From IMG/VR virus record IMGVR_UViG_3300025534_000213, positions 65,576-129,575 of that record: 64,000 bases of DNA; one strand, written 5' to 3'. Under the pieces are notes generated by a model, which was not told the DNA's origin, made no database searches, and worked only from the letters and a program-made list of their open reading frames with translations. The DNA is from a virus. Shown here piece after piece: positions 4,577 through 32,272 of this stretch (positions within the stretch are counted from its first letter, which is position 1; every line of letters starts with the position of its first letter). The position numbers and the translations under genes are program-made.

Positions 4577-5122
4577 ATGCTCACTCGCGCAATTCTCGCG
4601 GCTGCATTGCTCCTCGGGCTCGCGGTCGCTCCGGCCGATGCAGCCAGCATCGTCATCAACGGCCGCACTTACACCGTCTCCGATTCCGACGCGGCTGATC
4701 TGGCTCGTGCGGCGGAGACGAAGCAGACTGCGCAGGCGGTCGAGACCATCGGCGAGTACGCCGAACTGGGACGCACCATCGGCATCGGCGTCGCCACTGC
4801 CGCGAAGGAACTGGGGATTGCCGTCAATGAGTTCGCCAGCACGCCCATCGGCGTCCTTGCGACCGGCATCATCGTCTGGAAACTGATGGGGAAGGCGGTC
4901 GTGGGCGCCCTGTGGCTGCTGATCGCCCTGCCGATTTGGTACATCACGTTCCGCCGGATGGCGATCTTCAAGCGGCGCGTGGAACGGGTGGACGACAAGG
5001 GCCGCAAAATCGTCGAGTACGATTACTATACGCCGTCCGATAACGTCGAGGAAATACGCTTCATGTTCGCCTTTGCTCTGGCGATAATCCTCGGCCTCGG
5101 TCTGATGTTGATGTTTGGCTGA
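4577..5122 (+). CDS. Membrane protein with signal peptide
   Basis: N-terminal signal-like segment plus several TM-like segments. Confidence 0.75.
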   Translation: MLTRAILAAALLLGLAVAPADAASIVINGRTYTVSDSDAADLARAAETKQTAQAVETIGEYAELGRTIGIGVATAAKELGIAVNEFASTPIGVLATGIIVWKLMGKAVVGALWLLIALPIWYITFRRMAIFKRRVERVDDKGRKIVEYDYYTPSDNVEEIRFMFAFALAIILGLGLMLMFG

Positions 5123-5885: not shown

Positions 5886-6010
5886 GCCCTGCGCTCCGAA
5901 GGTGGATGGCGCCCACGGTCGGGTACGATCCGACACCCCCGATTTTAGAGATCGGTCCTCTGCCAGTTGAGGTACGCGGGCGTGAGATGTAGATAACAGG
6001 GGAAAGGCGG

Positions 6011-24125: not shown

Positions 24126-24185
24126 CTTGACAAATTCGGTTCTATGACCGAAAAAGCGCCGTTCCTTTCAGAAGGCGCTTGCTTG

Positions 24186-25337
24186 ATGCTGGACTGCGTG
24201 CTCACTCCCGACCTGCTCGCCCTCCGGGTGGCCTTCCAGCGGCATGGGTTCGATATCCGGCTGGTGGGTGGGGTGGTGCGCGACCTGCTGGATGGGCGGA
24301 CGCCCAAGGACATTGACCTCTGCACCGATGCCACGCCGGAGGAGCAGCGGGCGGTCTACGAGGCGGAGGGGATCAACCACTACGACACCGGTCTCAGCCA
24401 CGGGACGTGGACGGTGACCCTCAACCATATGCCCTACGAGATCACCAGCCTCCGGGTGGAGCGGGATCACGACGGGCGCTGGGCCACGGTTTCCTTCACC
24501 CGCGACTGGGAGGCGGACCTCGGGCGGCGGGATTTGACCATCAACGCCATGGCACTGACCTTTGACGGGGTGTTTGTGGACCCGTTCAACGGGGCCGAGG
24601 ACCTGCGCAACCGGGTGGTGCGGTTTGTCGGGGAGCCGGATGCGCGGATGCAGGAGGACTATCTCCGTATTCTCCGCTGGGTACGGTTCCATGCCCGGAT
24701 CGCCGGGGATCGGGAACCGGATGCCGAGACGGTTGCGGCGGCGAGGCGCAATGCCTCGGGGCTCCGCCGCATTTCCCGTGAGCGGGTATGGAGCGAGGTC
24801 CGCCGGATCATCGCTGGGCCGCATGGTCCCGAGATGATGGCGCTGATGGAGCGGGTCGGGATTGCCGAGCATATCGACCTGCCGATCCGCCGCGACATGG
24901 CGCCCGTGGCTCTTGCGTACCGGGGGACCCGCGATCCGGTCAGCCTCATGGCCGCCCATCTCGGCTCCGTGGGGGCGGTGGCGGAGATGGCGATGCTCTG
25001 GAAGTGGAGCAACGTCGAGCGGGACCTTGGCCTTGCGGTGGCGCGCCATGCGGGGCAGGGGCTCACGCTGGCTGATGCCAAGGCCATGGTAGCGGTGAAC
25101 GGGATGCCGAAGAAGTGGCTGGTGGAGGTGTTCCGCGTCGAGGGGAGGGTGGACCTCGCCGAGGCACTGGACCTTTGGGCGGTGCCGAACTTCCCGGTGA
25201 CGGGGGATGACCTCATCGCCGCCGGGATGCGGCCGGGGCCGGTGATGGGGAAGGTGCTGGCCGGGCTCCGGAAGGTCTGGGCGGCCAGCGACTTCACGGC
25301 GGGCAGGGAGGTGCTTCTGGCGCAGGTGACGGTATGA
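24186..25337 (+). CDS. cca: CCA-adding enzyme / tRNA nucleotidyltransferase (class II)
   Basis: VGGVVRDLL..PKDIDL, DLGRRDLTINAMA, EDYLRILR, ISRERVWSE. Confidence 0.93.
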   Translation: MLDCVLTPDLLALRVAFQRHGFDIRLVGGVVRDLLDGRTPKDIDLCTDATPEEQRAVYEAEGINHYDTGLSHGTWTVTLNHMPYEITSLRVERDHDGRWATVSFTRDWEADLGRRDLTINAMALTFDGVFVDPFNGAEDLRNRVVRFVGEPDARMQEDYLRILRWVRFHARIAGDREPDAETVAAARRNASGLRRISRERVWSEVRRIIAGPHGPEMMALMERVGIAEHIDLPIRRDMAPVALAYRGTRDPVSLMAAHLGSVGAVAEMAMLWKWSNVERDLGLAVARHAGQGLTLADAKAMVAVNGMPKKWLVEVFRVEGRVDLAEALDLWAVPNFPVTGDDLIAAGMRPGPVMGKVLAGLRKVWAASDFTAGREVLLAQVTV

Positions 25338-28818: not shown

Positions 28819-29625
28819 TCATTGACCGGAGTACCAGAGCCGGAACTGCACTAACTGGCTATCGGACCAGTGACCGTATAGCGGGAACTCATGTTCCGCG
28901 AGCCACGCCTCGACCTGCTCGGTGAGATCACGGCCGTGACGATGCCATTCCATCCTGCCATCAGGGAGGATGACAGACGGACCGTCCTCGCGGTGTAATT
29001 GGCCGTTCAGATACCATCCCTGTGAGCCATCAGGCTTGATGACGGCGGGGCCGTCCTCGCGGTGTGGTTCGCCGCCCAGATACCATCTCCGTGTACCATC
29101 AGCACAGATGACCGCAGGTCCCCCATCGCGGTGCAGCTTGCCACTCAGGTACCATGCCTGCGTGCCATCAGCATCGATGGCGGCAGGTCCGTCCTCACGG
29201 TGCAGTTTGCCGTGAACCCGCCATTCTTGCGAGCCATCTGCCAAGATGGCCGCAGGACCGTCATTGCGGTGCAATTGACCGTTCAAATACCACGCCTTTT
29301 CTCCGTTCGAGAGGATGAGCGCAGGACCCTCCACGCGGTGTACCAAGCCATTCAAGTACCATCTCTGTGAGCCATCGGGCTCGATGATGGCGGGTCCGTC
29401 CTCGCGGTGTAATTGGCCGTTCAGATACCATTTCAGTGTGCCGTCCGCACAGATGACCGCAGGGCCACCCACACGGTGCCGTAAGCCATTCAGATACCAT
29501 ATCCGCGTGCCATCTGCGCGAATGACAGTAGGAGCGTCCTCGCTTTGCAACTGACCGCTCACGCGCCACTTCCTTGCGCCATCCGGGAGGCAGATGGAAT
29601 GGTGTTCGATGAGAGCGTGCGTCAT
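28819..29625 (-). CDS. HREDGPA (MORN-variant-like) 22-aa repeat protein, paralogue A (about 9 repeats)
   Basis: Repeated LHREDGPA.I..DG...WYLNG; conserved C-terminal module. Confidence 0.85.
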   Translation of the reverse strand: MTHALIEHHSICLPDGARKWRVSGQLQSEDAPTVIRADGTRIWYLNGLRHRVGGPAVICADGTLKWYLNGQLHREDGPAIIEPDGSQRWYLNGLVHRVEGPALILSNGEKAWYLNGQLHRNDGPAAILADGSQEWRVHGKLHREDGPAAIDADGTQAWYLSGKLHRDGGPAVICADGTRRWYLGGEPHREDGPAVIKPDGSQGWYLNGQLHREDGPSVILPDGRMEWHRHGRDLTEQVEAWLAEHEFPLYGHWSDSQLVQFRLWYSGQ

Positions 29626-30152
29626 TGGCCGGAATACCAGATCAGAAATTCTACAAGCTGGGCGTCAGACCAGCGACCAAATGGCGGAAACTCGTGTTCC
29701 TTAAGCCACGCCTCGACCTGCTCAGTGAGACGCCGACCACGGCGGTGCCATTCCATCGTACCATCCGGGTGGACGACCGCAGGTCCATCCTCGCGGTGTA
29801 GCTTTCCGTGGACCCACCAAGCCTGTGCGCCGTTAGCGAAAATGACGGCAGGACCGTCCTCTCGGTGCCGAACGCCCTTTGACCACCATTCCTGCGTCCC
29901 ATCCTTACGGATGACCGCAGGCCCATCCTCTCGATGCTGAAAGCCGTTCATCCACCATTCCAACTTGCCGTTAGGGTGGATGACAGCAGGGCCGCCTACG
30001 CGGTGTCGCTTCCCTTTGACATGCCAAATCCGAGCGCCGTCCGCGCGAATGATGGCAGACTCATCTTCGCGGTGCTGAATGCCGTTTGTCGGCCAATCTT
30101 GTCTACCATCTGGGGGACAGGTAGGACCGTGATCAATGAGAGCGCGCGTCAT
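29622..30152 (-). CDS. HREDGPA repeat protein, paralogue B (about 5 repeats)
   Basis: Same repeat and C-terminal module; ATGA-coupled. Confidence 0.85.
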   Translation of the reverse strand: MTRALIDHGPTCPPDGRQDWPTNGIQHREDESAIIRADGARIWHVKGKRHRVGGPAVIHPNGKLEWWMNGFQHREDGPAVIRKDGTQEWWSKGVRHREDGPAVIFANGAQAWWVHGKLHREDGPAVVHPDGTMEWHRRGRRLTEQVEAWLKEHEFPPFGRWSDAQLVEFLIWYSGQ

Positions 30153-30826
30153 TGACTCGAATACCAGATCAGAAATTCCACAAGCTGGGCGTCAGACCAG
30201 TGGCCGCACGGCGGGAATTCATGTTCCCTGATCCACGCCTCGACCCGCTTGGTAAGCGGCCGATCATGGCGGTACCATTCCATCATGCCGTTCGGGAAAA
30301 TGATCGAAGGCCCATCGTCACGGTGTTGCAGGTTATGTTGTATCCATATCCGCAATCCGTCGGCTTGAATGATCGCAGGTCCATCCTCGCGGTGGAACTC
30401 ACCGTTCACGTGCCATTCTTGTGTGCCATCGGCATCAATGACGGCAGGCCCATCCACGCGGTGCAATTGGCCGTTCATCCACCATTGTTGCGTGCCATCA
30501 GGCTCAATGACGGAGGGTCCGTCCTCTCGATGTAACTGACCGCCCTGATACCATTTCTGTGGGCCGTCTGGCCTGATCGAGGCAGAGCCATCCTCGTCGT
30601 GCAGATTGCCATCTGCCCGCCAGTCCCGCCGACCATCCGGGCATGTGCTCATCCCATCCTTTGCGAGGTCGCTGGCGGCTTCGTGGGGCGGCTTTCGCAT
30701 TTCGTCGTTCGCAACGGAGTGGCGATGCACAATCGGCATGGACTTTCCCTCACTCGGCCGAGGGCAACCGTCCGGGGTTGCCGTATCCGGCAGGCGGTTG
30801 TTCGCTTCGACAATGCGGGACTTCAT
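30149..30826 (-). CDS. HREDGPA repeat protein, paralogue C (about 5 repeats, longer N-terminus)
   Basis: Same repeat and C-terminal module; GAGGGG RBS before ATG 30826. Confidence 0.8.
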   Translation of the reverse strand: MKSRIVEANNRLPDTATPDGCPRPSEGKSMPIVHRHSVANDEMRKPPHEAASDLAKDGMSTCPDGRRDWRADGNLHDEDGSASIRPDGPQKWYQGGQLHREDGPSVIEPDGTQQWWMNGQLHRVDGPAVIDADGTQEWHVNGEFHREDGPAIIQADGLRIWIQHNLQHRDDGPSIIFPNGMMEWYRHDRPLTKRVEAWIREHEFPPCGHWSDAQLVEFLIWYSSQ

Positions 30827-30892: not shown

Positions 30893-30969
30893 TGGAGGGT
30901 GCGAGCGGGATCGAACCGCCAACCTCAGGCTTATGAGACCTGCGCTCTGACCGGTTGAGCTACGCACCC
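30893..30969 (-). tRNA. tRNA-Met or Ile2 (CAT), not initiator type
   Basis: Cloverleaf, G1-C72 pair, U73, encoded CCA. Confidence 0.9.
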
Positions 30970-30976
30970 CGAGAAA

Positions 30977-31055
30977 GGCGGCCCCGGAGGGACTCGAACC
31001 CCCATTCGCATCCGATTACGGGTTGCCGGGTAGAAACCGGCGCCGATACGGGGCC
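30977..31055 (-). tRNA. Non-canonical tRNA-like gene, nominal anticodon TCT (Arg), no standard D-arm
   Basis: Acceptor GGCCCCG/CGGGGCC, T-arm GGGGG-TTCGAGT-CCCTC, arm GCCGG-TTTCTAC-CCGGC, only 7 nt between acceptor and anticodon arm. Confidence 0.75.
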
Positions 31056-31060
31056 AAGCA

Positions 31061-31137
31061 TGGCGGTCCCATGAGGATTCGAACCTCAAACCTCCGGCTC
31101 CGCAAGCCGACGCTCTATCCAGTTGAGCTATGGGACC
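31061..31137 (-). tRNA. tRNA-Arg(GCG)
   Basis: Cloverleaf, loop TTGCGGA, A20, encoded CCA. Confidence 0.93.
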
Positions 31138-31147
31138 AGAAAGGATG

Positions 31148-31221
31148 TGGATGCCCGAGTAGGATTCGAACCTACGTCTCAGGGGCCAAGACCCTGCGTT
31201 CTGCCGCTAAACTATCGGGCA
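31148..31221 (-). tRNA. tRNA-Gln(TTG) with C33
   Basis: U1-A72 pair, loop TCTTGGC, encoded CCA. Confidence 0.88.
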
Positions 31222-31236
31222 GCAGATGAGGGGTTT

Positions 31237-31314
31237 TGGGGTGAGCGACGAGACTCGAACTCGCGACCTTCGGTGTCACAAACCGACGCTCTGACCAACT
31301 GAGCTACGCTCACC
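31237..31314 (-). tRNA. tRNA-His(GTG) with G-1 and C73
   Basis: Cloverleaf, encoded CCA. Confidence 0.95.
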
Positions 31315-31334
31315 GTGGAGCGGTGGTGCTGGTA

Positions 31335-31408
31335 TGGACACAGGTGGACTCGAACCACCGACATGCGGTGTGTAAGACCGCTGTTCTACCGGGCTGAACT
31401 ATGTGTCC
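31335..31408 (-). tRNA. tRNA-Val(TAC), CCA not encoded directly
   Basis: Cloverleaf; after A73 the gene reads TACCA. Confidence 0.9.
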
Positions 31409-31545: not shown

Positions 31546-31585
31546 GGGTTGATCCTCCAAAATGGTGAATTCAGTGTACCACTAC

Positions 31586-32272
31586 CTATTTAACGTCGTC
31601 AAGTGATTTCCCGCCCGAAAGGTGCGAAAAATCCCGGAATACCCGGTGTGCGACCTGATCCTTGCCGCCGTGCTTGGCGCTGTACAGGAGGTCATCGACC
31701 ATGGCGAGCGCGGCGGAGGCATCATCGGGTGGCATCAGGAAGGTGACCACGCCAACCGATGCCGTCACCGGCCATCCGGCCGAGGTCATGCGCTTGGCGA
31801 TCTCGGCCCTGATCCGTTCGCCGACCACGGCCGCGTCAACACTGCCGCTGAGCAGCACGACGAATTCGTCGCCACCGATCCGGGCAGCCATGTCCTCCCG
31901 CCGCAGACTGGTGCTCAGCACCTCCGCCGCCTGCCGCAGCGCCCGGTCCCCGGCGGCATGGCCGTGGCGGTCATTGACCTGCTTGAACCCATCGAGGTCG
32001 ATGGCAATAAGCGAGAATGGTTCGGCGTGCCGCTTGCGGCGCGCGATGGCCCGCTCGATGGCGTCGATGATGGCAGGACGGTTGGCGATGCCGGTCAGGG
32101 CATCTGTCAGGGCCACACGGCGGATACGATCCAAGGCTCGGCGCATCTCCTCAATGGCTTCCGCCACCTGCTTGAGGGCGGGAGCGCACTCCGCACGTCT
32201 CGCAGCAAGTTCACGCAGGACATCAAGACTTTCGGCGCACCGCTTTTCGAGTGCATCGGGGGTGAAGGGCAT
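31586..32272 (-). CDS. Diguanylate cyclase (GGDEF domain with N-terminal coiled coil)
   Basis: TDALTGIANR, IDLDGFKQVNDRHGHAAGD, RRED I-site, GGDEF. Confidence 0.92.
   Translation of the reverse strand: MPFTPDALEKRCAESLDVLRELAARRAECAPALKQVAEAIEEMRRALDRIRRVALTDALTGIANRPAIIDAIERAIARRKRHAEPFSLIAIDLDGFKQVNDRHGHAAGDRALRQAAEVLSTSLRREDMAARIGGDEFVVLLSGSVDAAVVGERIRAEIAKRMTSAGWPVTASVGVVTFLMPPDDASAALAMVDDLLYSAKHGGKDQVAHRVFRDFSHLSGGKSLDDVK

Follow-up and report, generated by a model that had tools for sequence, protein, structure and literature searches.

A probable phage tRNA-Arg(UCU) gene with a rewired core, a divergent example of a tRNA layout that has apparently not been described before

Can a transfer RNA (tRNA) with no room for a D arm still be a working tRNA? 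The question is raised by a short element on the minus strand of a 64,000-nucleotide (nt) stretch of viral DNA (positions 65,576 to 129,575 of IMG/VR virus record IMGVR_UViG_3300025534_000213; hereafter, the window), in which a UCU anticodon arm follows the acceptor stem after seven nucleotides (coordinates are collected in Table 1). Outside organelles, the cloverleaf with its locally formed D hairpin is regarded as almost universal. An initial annotation of the window had interpreted the element as a tRNA-Arg(UCU) with rewired pairing, its anticodon arm apparently nested inside the D arm, and had suggested nuclease evasion or a decoy role. Covariation across a family of related phage genes upholds the rewired fold, and we propose, with a probability of roughly 0.75 on sequence evidence, that the element is a working tRNA-Arg for AGA and AGG codons. 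It would be a divergent member of an apparently undescribed phage tRNA architecture.

Much of the element is that of an ordinary tRNA. It is 76 nt plus CC in length, and its 7-bp acceptor stem is Watson-Crick paired at 7/7 positions and its T stem closed at 5/5, one pair being G.U, in agreement with the perfect acceptor and T arm first described. The 5-bp anticodon stem carries a 7-nt loop with U33 and a purine at 37, and the T loop is a canonical UUCRA loop. The gene ends in GCC without the final A, as first noted, the base after the encoded CC (30976) being U. The D arm, a local hairpin of 3 to 4 bp with a 7- to 11-nt loop, is missing: the initial annotation had seen only UAUCGGC ahead of the anticodon arm and a 21-nt segment behind it, both of which we confirmed on the minus strand, and seven nucleotides leave no room for such a hairpin. 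Within the 21-nt segment, AACCCGUAAUCGGAUGCGAAU, lies an equivalent of the D-loop, A-A-U-C-G-G-A-U, which matches that of the canonical tRNA-Arg(GCG) of the same phage (A-A-C-U-G-G-A-U, AACUGGAU). This copy also carries the D-loop signature of the family, (C/G)GUAAU-N-GG-A plus a 4- to 5-nt tail ending in U, as CCGUAAUCGGA ... CGAAU, together with the family linker, UA(N)(Y)CGR, which pairs with YCG and (G)NUG (here UAU with AUG and CGG with CCG).

These pairings place two stacked helices, UAU:AUG and CGG:CCG, around the anticodon arm. When the element is aligned to the family covariance model R1 (below), helix Ha consists of U31048.G31009, A31047-U31010, and U31046-A31011, and helix Hb of C31045-G31019, G31044-C31020, and G31043-C31021, with UAAUCGG (31018-31012) bulged between them. 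In the main subfamily, Hb is formed by alignment columns 12-14 with 38-36 and Ha by columns 8-11 with 50-47. The data support one continuous helix, Ha plus Hb, that encloses the anticodon arm, with the 8-nt UAAUNGGA bulged from its 3' strand. The pairing first proposed, (G)TATC with GATG(C), is essentially borne out: the UAU:AUG helix covaries, but C31045 is modelled with G31019, leaving G31012 as its alternative partner. Either reading of C31045 nests the anticodon arm. Stacking Ha (4 layers in the main subfamily), Hb (3), the junction, and the anticodon stem (5) gives about 13 layers, close to what the core layers, D stem, position 26, and anticodon stem of a canonical tRNA add up to, which makes an L shape plausible.

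Covariation was assessed in two alignments: A1, comprising 35 equal-length ungapped members, and the wider set A2. In A1, the Ha pair 10:48 is G-C in 18 sequences, A-U in 14, and C-G, G-U, and U-A once each, and is never unpaired; pair 11:47 is C-G in 31, U-G in 3, and A-U in 1. The central Ha pair in the wider set is G-C 32 times, A-U 27 times, and U-A 4 times. Hb is invariant in the main subfamily, and A2 was therefore needed to test it. There, pair 13:37 is G-C in 76 members, C-G in 11, A-U in 6, and U-A in 1, with none unpaired, and pair 14:36 is A-U in 36, G-C in 28, C-G in 4, and unpaired in 26 (mostly A.C by eye). Read by eye, the linker and its partner occur as CGA:UCG, CGG:CCG, CAA:UUG, CAG:CUG, CCG:CGG, CCC:GGG, CUG:CAG, and ACC:GGU. 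Taken together, the seven long-range pairs are 91.8% paired (79.3% after shuffling) and show 91 double-sided changes against 25 +/- 8, values that 0 of 500 shuffles reached. For the whole structure, pairing is 95% against 65% and double-sided changes number 745 against 224, again with 0/500 shuffles as high. The conventional stems behave likewise: all seven acceptor pairs covary (97% paired), as do all five anticodon-stem pairs and four of the five in the T stem (97% paired).

Other ways of pairing the same segments fared worse. A local variable-arm hairpin, YCG with NGG, was matched or exceeded by 409 of 500 shuffles and showed a single compensatory cell in the family. An alternative register, in which linker YCGR pairs with U-N-G-G, showed no compensatory changes and did not rise above shuffles in the wide alignment, and it fails for linkers CCC, CAG, and ACC, where the YCG partner compensates. 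Wiring details may differ between subgroups. Members with a TACCGG linker (loci L004, L021, L030, L035, L037, L038, L045, L056, L059, and L143) pair poorly in Ha, and their linker UAC is complementary to a GUA just past the anticodon stem. Within this subgroup, members resembling that of Sinorhizobium phage Phosso carry an extra mini-hairpin, GAU-NNN-AUC, ahead of the T arm.

The covariance model R1 was built from A1 and the proposed structure, and its training set excluded this copy and the 7-nt-linker subgroup to which it belongs. R1 nevertheless scores the element at 70.5 bits (E = 4.3e-16 over the window; full-length match, 1-83), while canonical tRNAs reach at most 29.7 bits in the window and 31.4 bits elsewhere in the 191-kb record that contains it, placing the element far beyond chance. 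No second family member was found by R1 in that record. Across the fetched phage loci, the same model returned 116 matches, 98 of them distinct and nearly all unannotated, which answers the homologue search suggested at the outset. Members are 77 to 94 nt long and score from 35 to 101 bits. The nearest fetched relative is only 74% identical to the element, and all stems are intact despite this divergence, which points to selection rather than recent copying.

Standard tools overlook the layout. ARAGORN at default settings did not report the rewired gene, found no tRNA at the element in intron mode, and overlaps just 15 of 115 family members. Its -mt mode drew only a 45-nt fragment there, and its relaxed mode (-ps80) drew an 85-nt tRNA-Arg(UCU) with acceptor mismatches and a 3-bp D stem, overlapping tRNA-Arg(GCG). 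Both models were rejected, as was the RNAfold single-sequence fold, a non-tRNA structure with a broken T arm (z = -1.28) that is uninformative. In Rfam, no RF00005 row covers the element even at E <= 10; the highest-scoring match in the clan, to tRNA-Sec, reaches 25.1 bits and falls short of the two cut-offs (29, and 47 for tRNA-Sec), and no Rfam family covers the element. Full-text literature searches, with subscription-only papers outside their coverage, returned no description of the layout, and the study of other novel cloverleaf layouts by Mukai et al. in 2017 (PMC5389517) does not describe this architecture.

Synthetase identity in the family goes with the anticodon. A scan that ignored the anticodon recovered almost exclusively members with Arg anticodons (UCU, CCU, ACG, GCG, and UCG). 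The base after the GG of the D-loop equivalent is A whenever the anticodon is an Arg one (81 of 81 members) and U in 15 of 16 members with an Ile-type anticodon, all 16 of which have A73. In bacteria, A20 is the main determinant for arginyl-tRNA synthetase (ArgRS), along with C35, U/G36, and A/G73, and the Ile identity set includes U20 and A73 (PMC9976931). Our assignment of the base after GG to position 20 rests on this contrast between Arg and Ile members. At the sequence level, the element carries the full Arg set: A after GG, C35, U36, and G73. The equivalents of positions 15 and 48, the Levitt pair, also covary (A:U in about 86 members, G:C in 9/9, A:C in 1). Identity elements that follow the anticodon, together with a covarying Levitt pair, argue for a chargeable L-shaped tRNA and not a decoy. 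The Ile-type members share the rewired layout, have GAU (9), UAU (6), or CAU (1) anticodons, and often lie in clusters with Arg members; examples in A2 are L020:201-282, L028:7512-7594, L057:4498-4577 and 4806-4888, and L105:1123-1207 and 1691-1774.

As the covariation indicates, linker UAUCGG pairs with CCG and AUG, both located 3' of the anticodon arm, so that the D-loop is kept while both strands of the D stem are re-partnered. We propose that the bulged loop would build the elbow as in other tRNAs, G18G19 contacting the T loop and A15 contacting U48, and that the RNA would fold into an L of normal dimensions, as the layer count suggests. RNase P and 3' nucleases would excise it from a polycistronic precursor, and the terminal A76 could be added by a CCA-adding enzyme, of which the phage encodes one of this type. 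Since no ArgRS gene (no match to PF00750) was found in the 191-kb record (an estimated 38% complete), the host ArgRS would charge the element, presumably through the A20 equivalent, C35, U36, and G73. The charged tRNA would then read the rare codon AGA and probably AGG. The element is the only tRNA with a UCU anticodon in the record, where the canonical Arg tRNAs have GCG and CCG anticodons and serve CGN codons only. AGA is the rarest Arg codon of the phage (66 occurrences in 118 long open reading frames [ORFs], or 1.9% of Arg codons; AGG accounts for 6.5%), and a gene for an AGA reader fits the usual phage habit of supplying tRNAs for rare codons.

Several observations weigh against a working, rewired tRNA-Arg. 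The 7-nt linker makes the helix in this copy one pair shorter than in the main subfamily, and Ha contains mismatches in some relatives (Stenotrophomonas phage SOVA965 and locus L013). Because the model guided the alignment of A2, pair counts there lean toward the model's own pairs, and in the ungapped A1, free of that bias, covariation supports Ha only; the sequences that compensate in Hb are of standard length, and their changes are plain in the raw rows. On the ungapped alignment, RNAalifold prefers on energy the register of the linker with U-N-G-G. It thus closes the anticodon arm in the other register, and energy alone leaves the exact pairing unsettled. The anticodon loop has C38 (window position 31030) instead of A38, UUUCUAC in place of YUUCUAA, as do about 20 members. 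According to a report of 2026, bacterial synthesis of N6-threonylcarbamoyladenosine at position 37 (t6A37) needs U36-A37-A38 plus D-stem contacts (PMC13276492), so modification state and fidelity may differ from those of a normal AGA reader; AGA readers with C38 may lack t6A. All five neighbouring tRNAs of the array encode CCA, and the rewired gene ends in GCC-U, which could mark incipient decay. Demand for an AGA reader is small given the codon's share of Arg codons. A search of sequencing runs for this stretch returned only a bioreactor DNA metagenome, the probable source, and no RNA run, and the completeness of the record is only about 38%, itself an estimate.

The explanation that survives best beside ours refines the proposal of a working tRNA-Arg and does not exclude it. 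In an anti-defence role, the rewired core would escape nucleases or modifying enzymes (the host's, those of competing elements, or the phage's own) that target tRNAs and read the canonical D arm, core, or variable region, and arginine could still be decoded by the phage after destruction of canonical tRNA-Arg. In 13 of 68 fetched loci, the rewired gene has a canonical tRNA-Arg of matching anticodon beside it, which suggests that the two forms are not simply redundant, and the family is spread over unrelated phages of many hosts, as would be a horizontally exchanged countermeasure. That phage tRNAs rescue infection from tRNA-cleaving defences is established (PMC10264068, PMC11464382), and with the co-occurrence this makes an anti-defence role a reasonable hypothesis to entertain. 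We nonetheless consider it unlikely. No defence system that attacks tRNA-Arg through the D arm was identified in this analysis, tRNA-rich phages often duplicate canonical tRNAs too (e.g., the four tRNA-Gln genes of locus L129), the 191-kb record holds no canonical UCU copy to be backed up, and known evasion works through changes in the anticodon loop, which here is ordinary.

A decaying copy, transcribed but poorly matured or charged, is improbable. The unusual CCU end and C38 would suit such a relic, as would a score in the lower half of the family range and the rarity of AGA in the phage. The lower score, however, arises mostly because R1 was built from the 8-nt-linker subfamily, CCA is unencoded in 36 of 64 parsed members, the UUUCUAC loop is shared, and a gene of the CCA-adding type lies 6 kb away. 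Moreover, all 17 standard-stem pairs and 6 modelled long-range pairs are intact, and every main-subfamily invariant outside the variable junction is retained (U8, A9, the linker CG, CGUAAU, GG-A, U48, and the T-loop bases). Very improbable is a non-decoding mimic, whether a decoy or sponge for a nuclease, synthetase, or other tRNA-binding factor or a regulatory RNA, an idea that the decoy of the initial annotation had anticipated. A mimic would need neither a 7/5 branch, U33, and a purine at 37 nor a full set of Arg anticodons across phages, and it would not account for identity elements that switch with anticodon class, a covarying Levitt pair, or CCA encoded in 28 of 64 members. That the element is a misread conventional tRNA, either class II-like with a CCG-UAAU-CGG hairpin or the 85-nt relaxed-ARAGORN cloverleaf, hardly merits belief, since, although CCG and CGG of this copy can form a 3-bp hairpin and the -ps80 setting does draw a tRNA-Arg(UCU), that hairpin is no better than shuffles across the family, the -ps80 fold is flawed and overlaps a neighbouring gene, and seven nucleotides cannot hold a D arm.

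A comparison with known tRNA kinds bears on how novel a working tRNA-Arg with this core would be. With canonical tRNA-Arg (RF00005; here tRNA-Arg(GCG) of the same phage and an Ochrobactrum tRNA-Arg(UCU), L140:1501-1577), the element shares the stems, U33, A37, the UUCGA loop, the Arg identity set, the D-loop A-A-Y-Y-G-G-A, the R15:Y48 pair, and a place in a tRNA array. It differs in having no D hairpin: both D-stem strands lie 3' of the anticodon arm, each pairing with the 5' linker, and the order becomes acceptor, linker, anticodon arm, D-loop, T arm. Mitochondrial tRNAs that lack the D arm (metazoan mt-tRNA-Ser(AGY) and nematode 'armless' tRNAs) are about 54 to 65 nt long, have a simple loop in place of the D arm, and usually lose the elbow contacts of G18G19 with the T loop. 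They resemble the element in the few nucleotides between acceptor and anticodon stems and in needing special finder models. In contrast, the element is full-size; its T loop is canonical, the GG of its D-loop sequence is conserved, its Levitt pair covaries, and its D-stem strands are re-paired. Class II tRNAs, allo-tRNAs, and tRNA-Sec, nonstandard tRNAs of phages and bacteria among them, likewise have an extended stretch separating the anticodon arm from the T arm. In those tRNAs, however, this stretch forms a variable arm of its own and a D arm is present, whereas in the element it pairs with the 5' linker. The element's 7/5 branch also differs from the 8/4 or 9/3 acceptor/T branch of allo-tRNAs and, more broadly, from the 8/5, 9/4, 8/4, or 9/3 branch and long D stem that define the tRNA-Sec and allo-tRNA group.

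If the proposal is true, a different chain topology is compatible with the tRNA core and has been put to use in evolution. Phage tRNA complements would then be systematically incomplete for arginine and sometimes for isoleucine, which affects analyses of codon supply and anti-defence. The family would offer a natural scaffold for orthogonal tRNAs and a means of testing which enzymes recognize D-stem shape, among them RNase P, t6A synthase, and defence nucleases. We speculate, as a doubtful extension, that this is a second L-shaped tRNA topology, kept across hundreds of unrelated phages because it would be invisible to nucleases that read the D arm or core, immune or the phage's own, while still competent with ArgRS or its isoleucyl counterpart, EF-Tu, and the ribosome.

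The family is overwhelmingly viral. Among cultured-phage genomes, blastn identified copies in Stenotrophomonas phage SOVA965, Sinorhizobium phage Phosso (469 kb), Rhizobium phage RHph_I1_18, Agrobacterium phage Atu_ph04, and Ochrobactrum phage vB_OspM_OC. None of the five is annotated as a tRNA, and four lie wholly or mostly outside coding sequences. Partial matches occurred in three Pseudomonas phages (43 to 64% of the query) and, with the same layout, in a 642-kb uncultured megaphage. Loose patterns revealed dozens more members in IMG/VR, where a strict pattern combining the anticodon loop, the anticodon stem of this copy, and the T loop found no match. Several contigs hold two to four members with differing Arg anticodons. 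When one genome from each of 185,579 prokaryote species was scanned with a strict motif, only 8 matches emerged, mostly on tRNA-dense, viral-looking contigs of metagenome-assembled genomes (MAGs), so that the design is sporadic in cells.

Two such bacterial-MAG contigs, L129 (JAJFLM010000305) and L134/L137 (a 412-kb 'Alphaproteobacteria' contig), carry 14 to 19 tRNAs within a few kb alongside a rewired tRNA-Arg and look like mis-binned giant-phage DNA; L129 additionally has a UUA-anticodon tRNA of the ochre-suppressor type and four copies of tRNA-Gln. Another of the 8 matches, a rewired tRNA-Arg(UCU) scoring 87.8 bits, lies on a chromosome scaffold of Ochrobactrum sp. CM-21-5 (JACLZJ010000004, G001:C23:263152-263234; loci L132, L136, and L142). 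Its neighbours are LysR, xseA, L,D-transpeptidase, and rsmE-like genes, and scans with PHROGs and Pfam over 7 kb upstream and 16 kb downstream recovered housekeeping genes and nothing clearly of phage origin. The same genome has a canonical tRNA-Arg(UCU), and only 3 of 81 genomes of this bacterial family contain a match.

A related, unannotated element occurs in Escherichia phage EscoHU1 (NC_133119, L019:~655-750) and about 90 other T5-like Salmonella and Escherichia phages. It shares 86% identity with the 3' half of a member (CCGUAAC-UGG-UGGAAGAU plus the T arm), has ACGG, a 10-nt loop, and CCGU in place of a recognizable anticodon arm, and has a U.U mismatch in the acceptor stem. It was not counted as a member because it matches the 3' half only and gave no R1 match at E <= 1e-5; it may be a derived tRNA-like RNA or a relic.

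Table 1. Features of the rewired tRNA gene and its surroundings, in window coordinates, and column layout of the ungapped family alignment A1.
Feature	Position	Strand	Basis
Whole rewired tRNA-Arg(UCU), 79 bases, acceptor position 1 to encoded CC	30977..31055	-	Sequence and R1 match
Acceptor 5' strand GGCCCCG, partner 30980-30986	31049..31055	-	7/7 Watson-Crick
5' linker UAUCGGC between acceptor and anticodon stems, 7 nt	31048-31042	-	Sequence
Pairing part of linker, UAUCGG (UAU 31048-31046, CGG 31045-31043)	31043..31048	-	Covariance model alignment
C31042, position-26 equivalent	31042	-	Covariance model alignment
Anticodon arm GCCGG-UUUCUAC-CCGGC (U33; UCU, 31034-31032; A37; C38)	31025..31041	-	Stem 5/5 paired
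21-nt segment 3' of anticodon arm	31024-31004	-	Sequence
Junction AAC, 3 nt, before CCG	31024-31022	-	Sequence
CCG, helix Hb partner of linker CGG	31019..31021	-	Compensatory variants in family
D-loop equivalent UAAUCGG (A14, A15, G18, G19 equivalents)	31012..31018	-	Motif match
A31011, A20 equivalent; also modelled as paired with U31046 in this 7-nt-linker copy	31011	-	Covariance model alignment
AUG (helix Ha 3' strand), then CGAAU, 5-nt variable-loop equivalent	31004..31011	-	Covariance model alignment
U48 equivalent, last base of CGAAU	31004	-	Covariance model alignment
T arm GGGGG-UUCGAGU-CCCUC (G53-C61, U54, U55, C56, A58)	30987..31003	-	Stem 5/5, one G.U
Acceptor 3' strand CGGGGCC (30980-30986), G73 (30979), C74, C75; A76 unencoded	30977..30986	-	Sequence
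tRNA array Val(UAC), His(GUG), Gln(UUG), Arg(GCG), rewired Arg(UCU), Met(CAU)	30893..31408	-	ARAGORN and Rfam
Promoter-like site TTGACG-18-TACACT with TG, upstream of array	31573..31602	-	Consensus scan only
CCA-adding enzyme / poly(A) polymerase family gene	24144..25337	+	PF01743, 106 bits, window 24255-24623
A1, acceptor 5' strand	columns 1-7
A1, linker U A R Y C G R N	columns 8-15
A1, anticodon arm	columns 16-32
A1, U A A/U	columns 33-35
A1, Y C G	columns 36-38
A1, U A A U N G G A	columns 39-46
A1, G Y U G	columns 47-50
A1, N A A A U	columns 51-55
A1, T arm	columns 56-72
A1, acceptor 3' strand	columns 73-79

The length of the IMG/VR record (G+C content, 63%) and its estimated completeness point to a giant phage as the source. 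As the initial annotation stated, the rewired gene sits within an otherwise canonical tRNA operon, a six-gene array on the minus strand, in which it begins 5 nt past tRNA-Arg(GCG) (31061-31137) and ends 7 nt ahead of tRNA-Met. The promoter-like site upstream of the array is not above shuffled expectation in the consensus scan and offers a weak lead. Directly downstream of the array lie three tandem paralogous ORFs (window 28819-30800, minus strand) with repeats of the W(Y/W)xNG(Q/K)xHRxDGPA type, MORN-like by eye; the annotated start of the third overlaps tRNA-Met, and its true start must therefore be further in. Elsewhere in the window (5907-5981, minus strand) lies a candidate amber suppressor, a tRNA with a CUA anticodon (labelled 'Pyl' by ARAGORN) and an encoded CCA; TAG terminates only 8 of the 118 long ORFs of the record.

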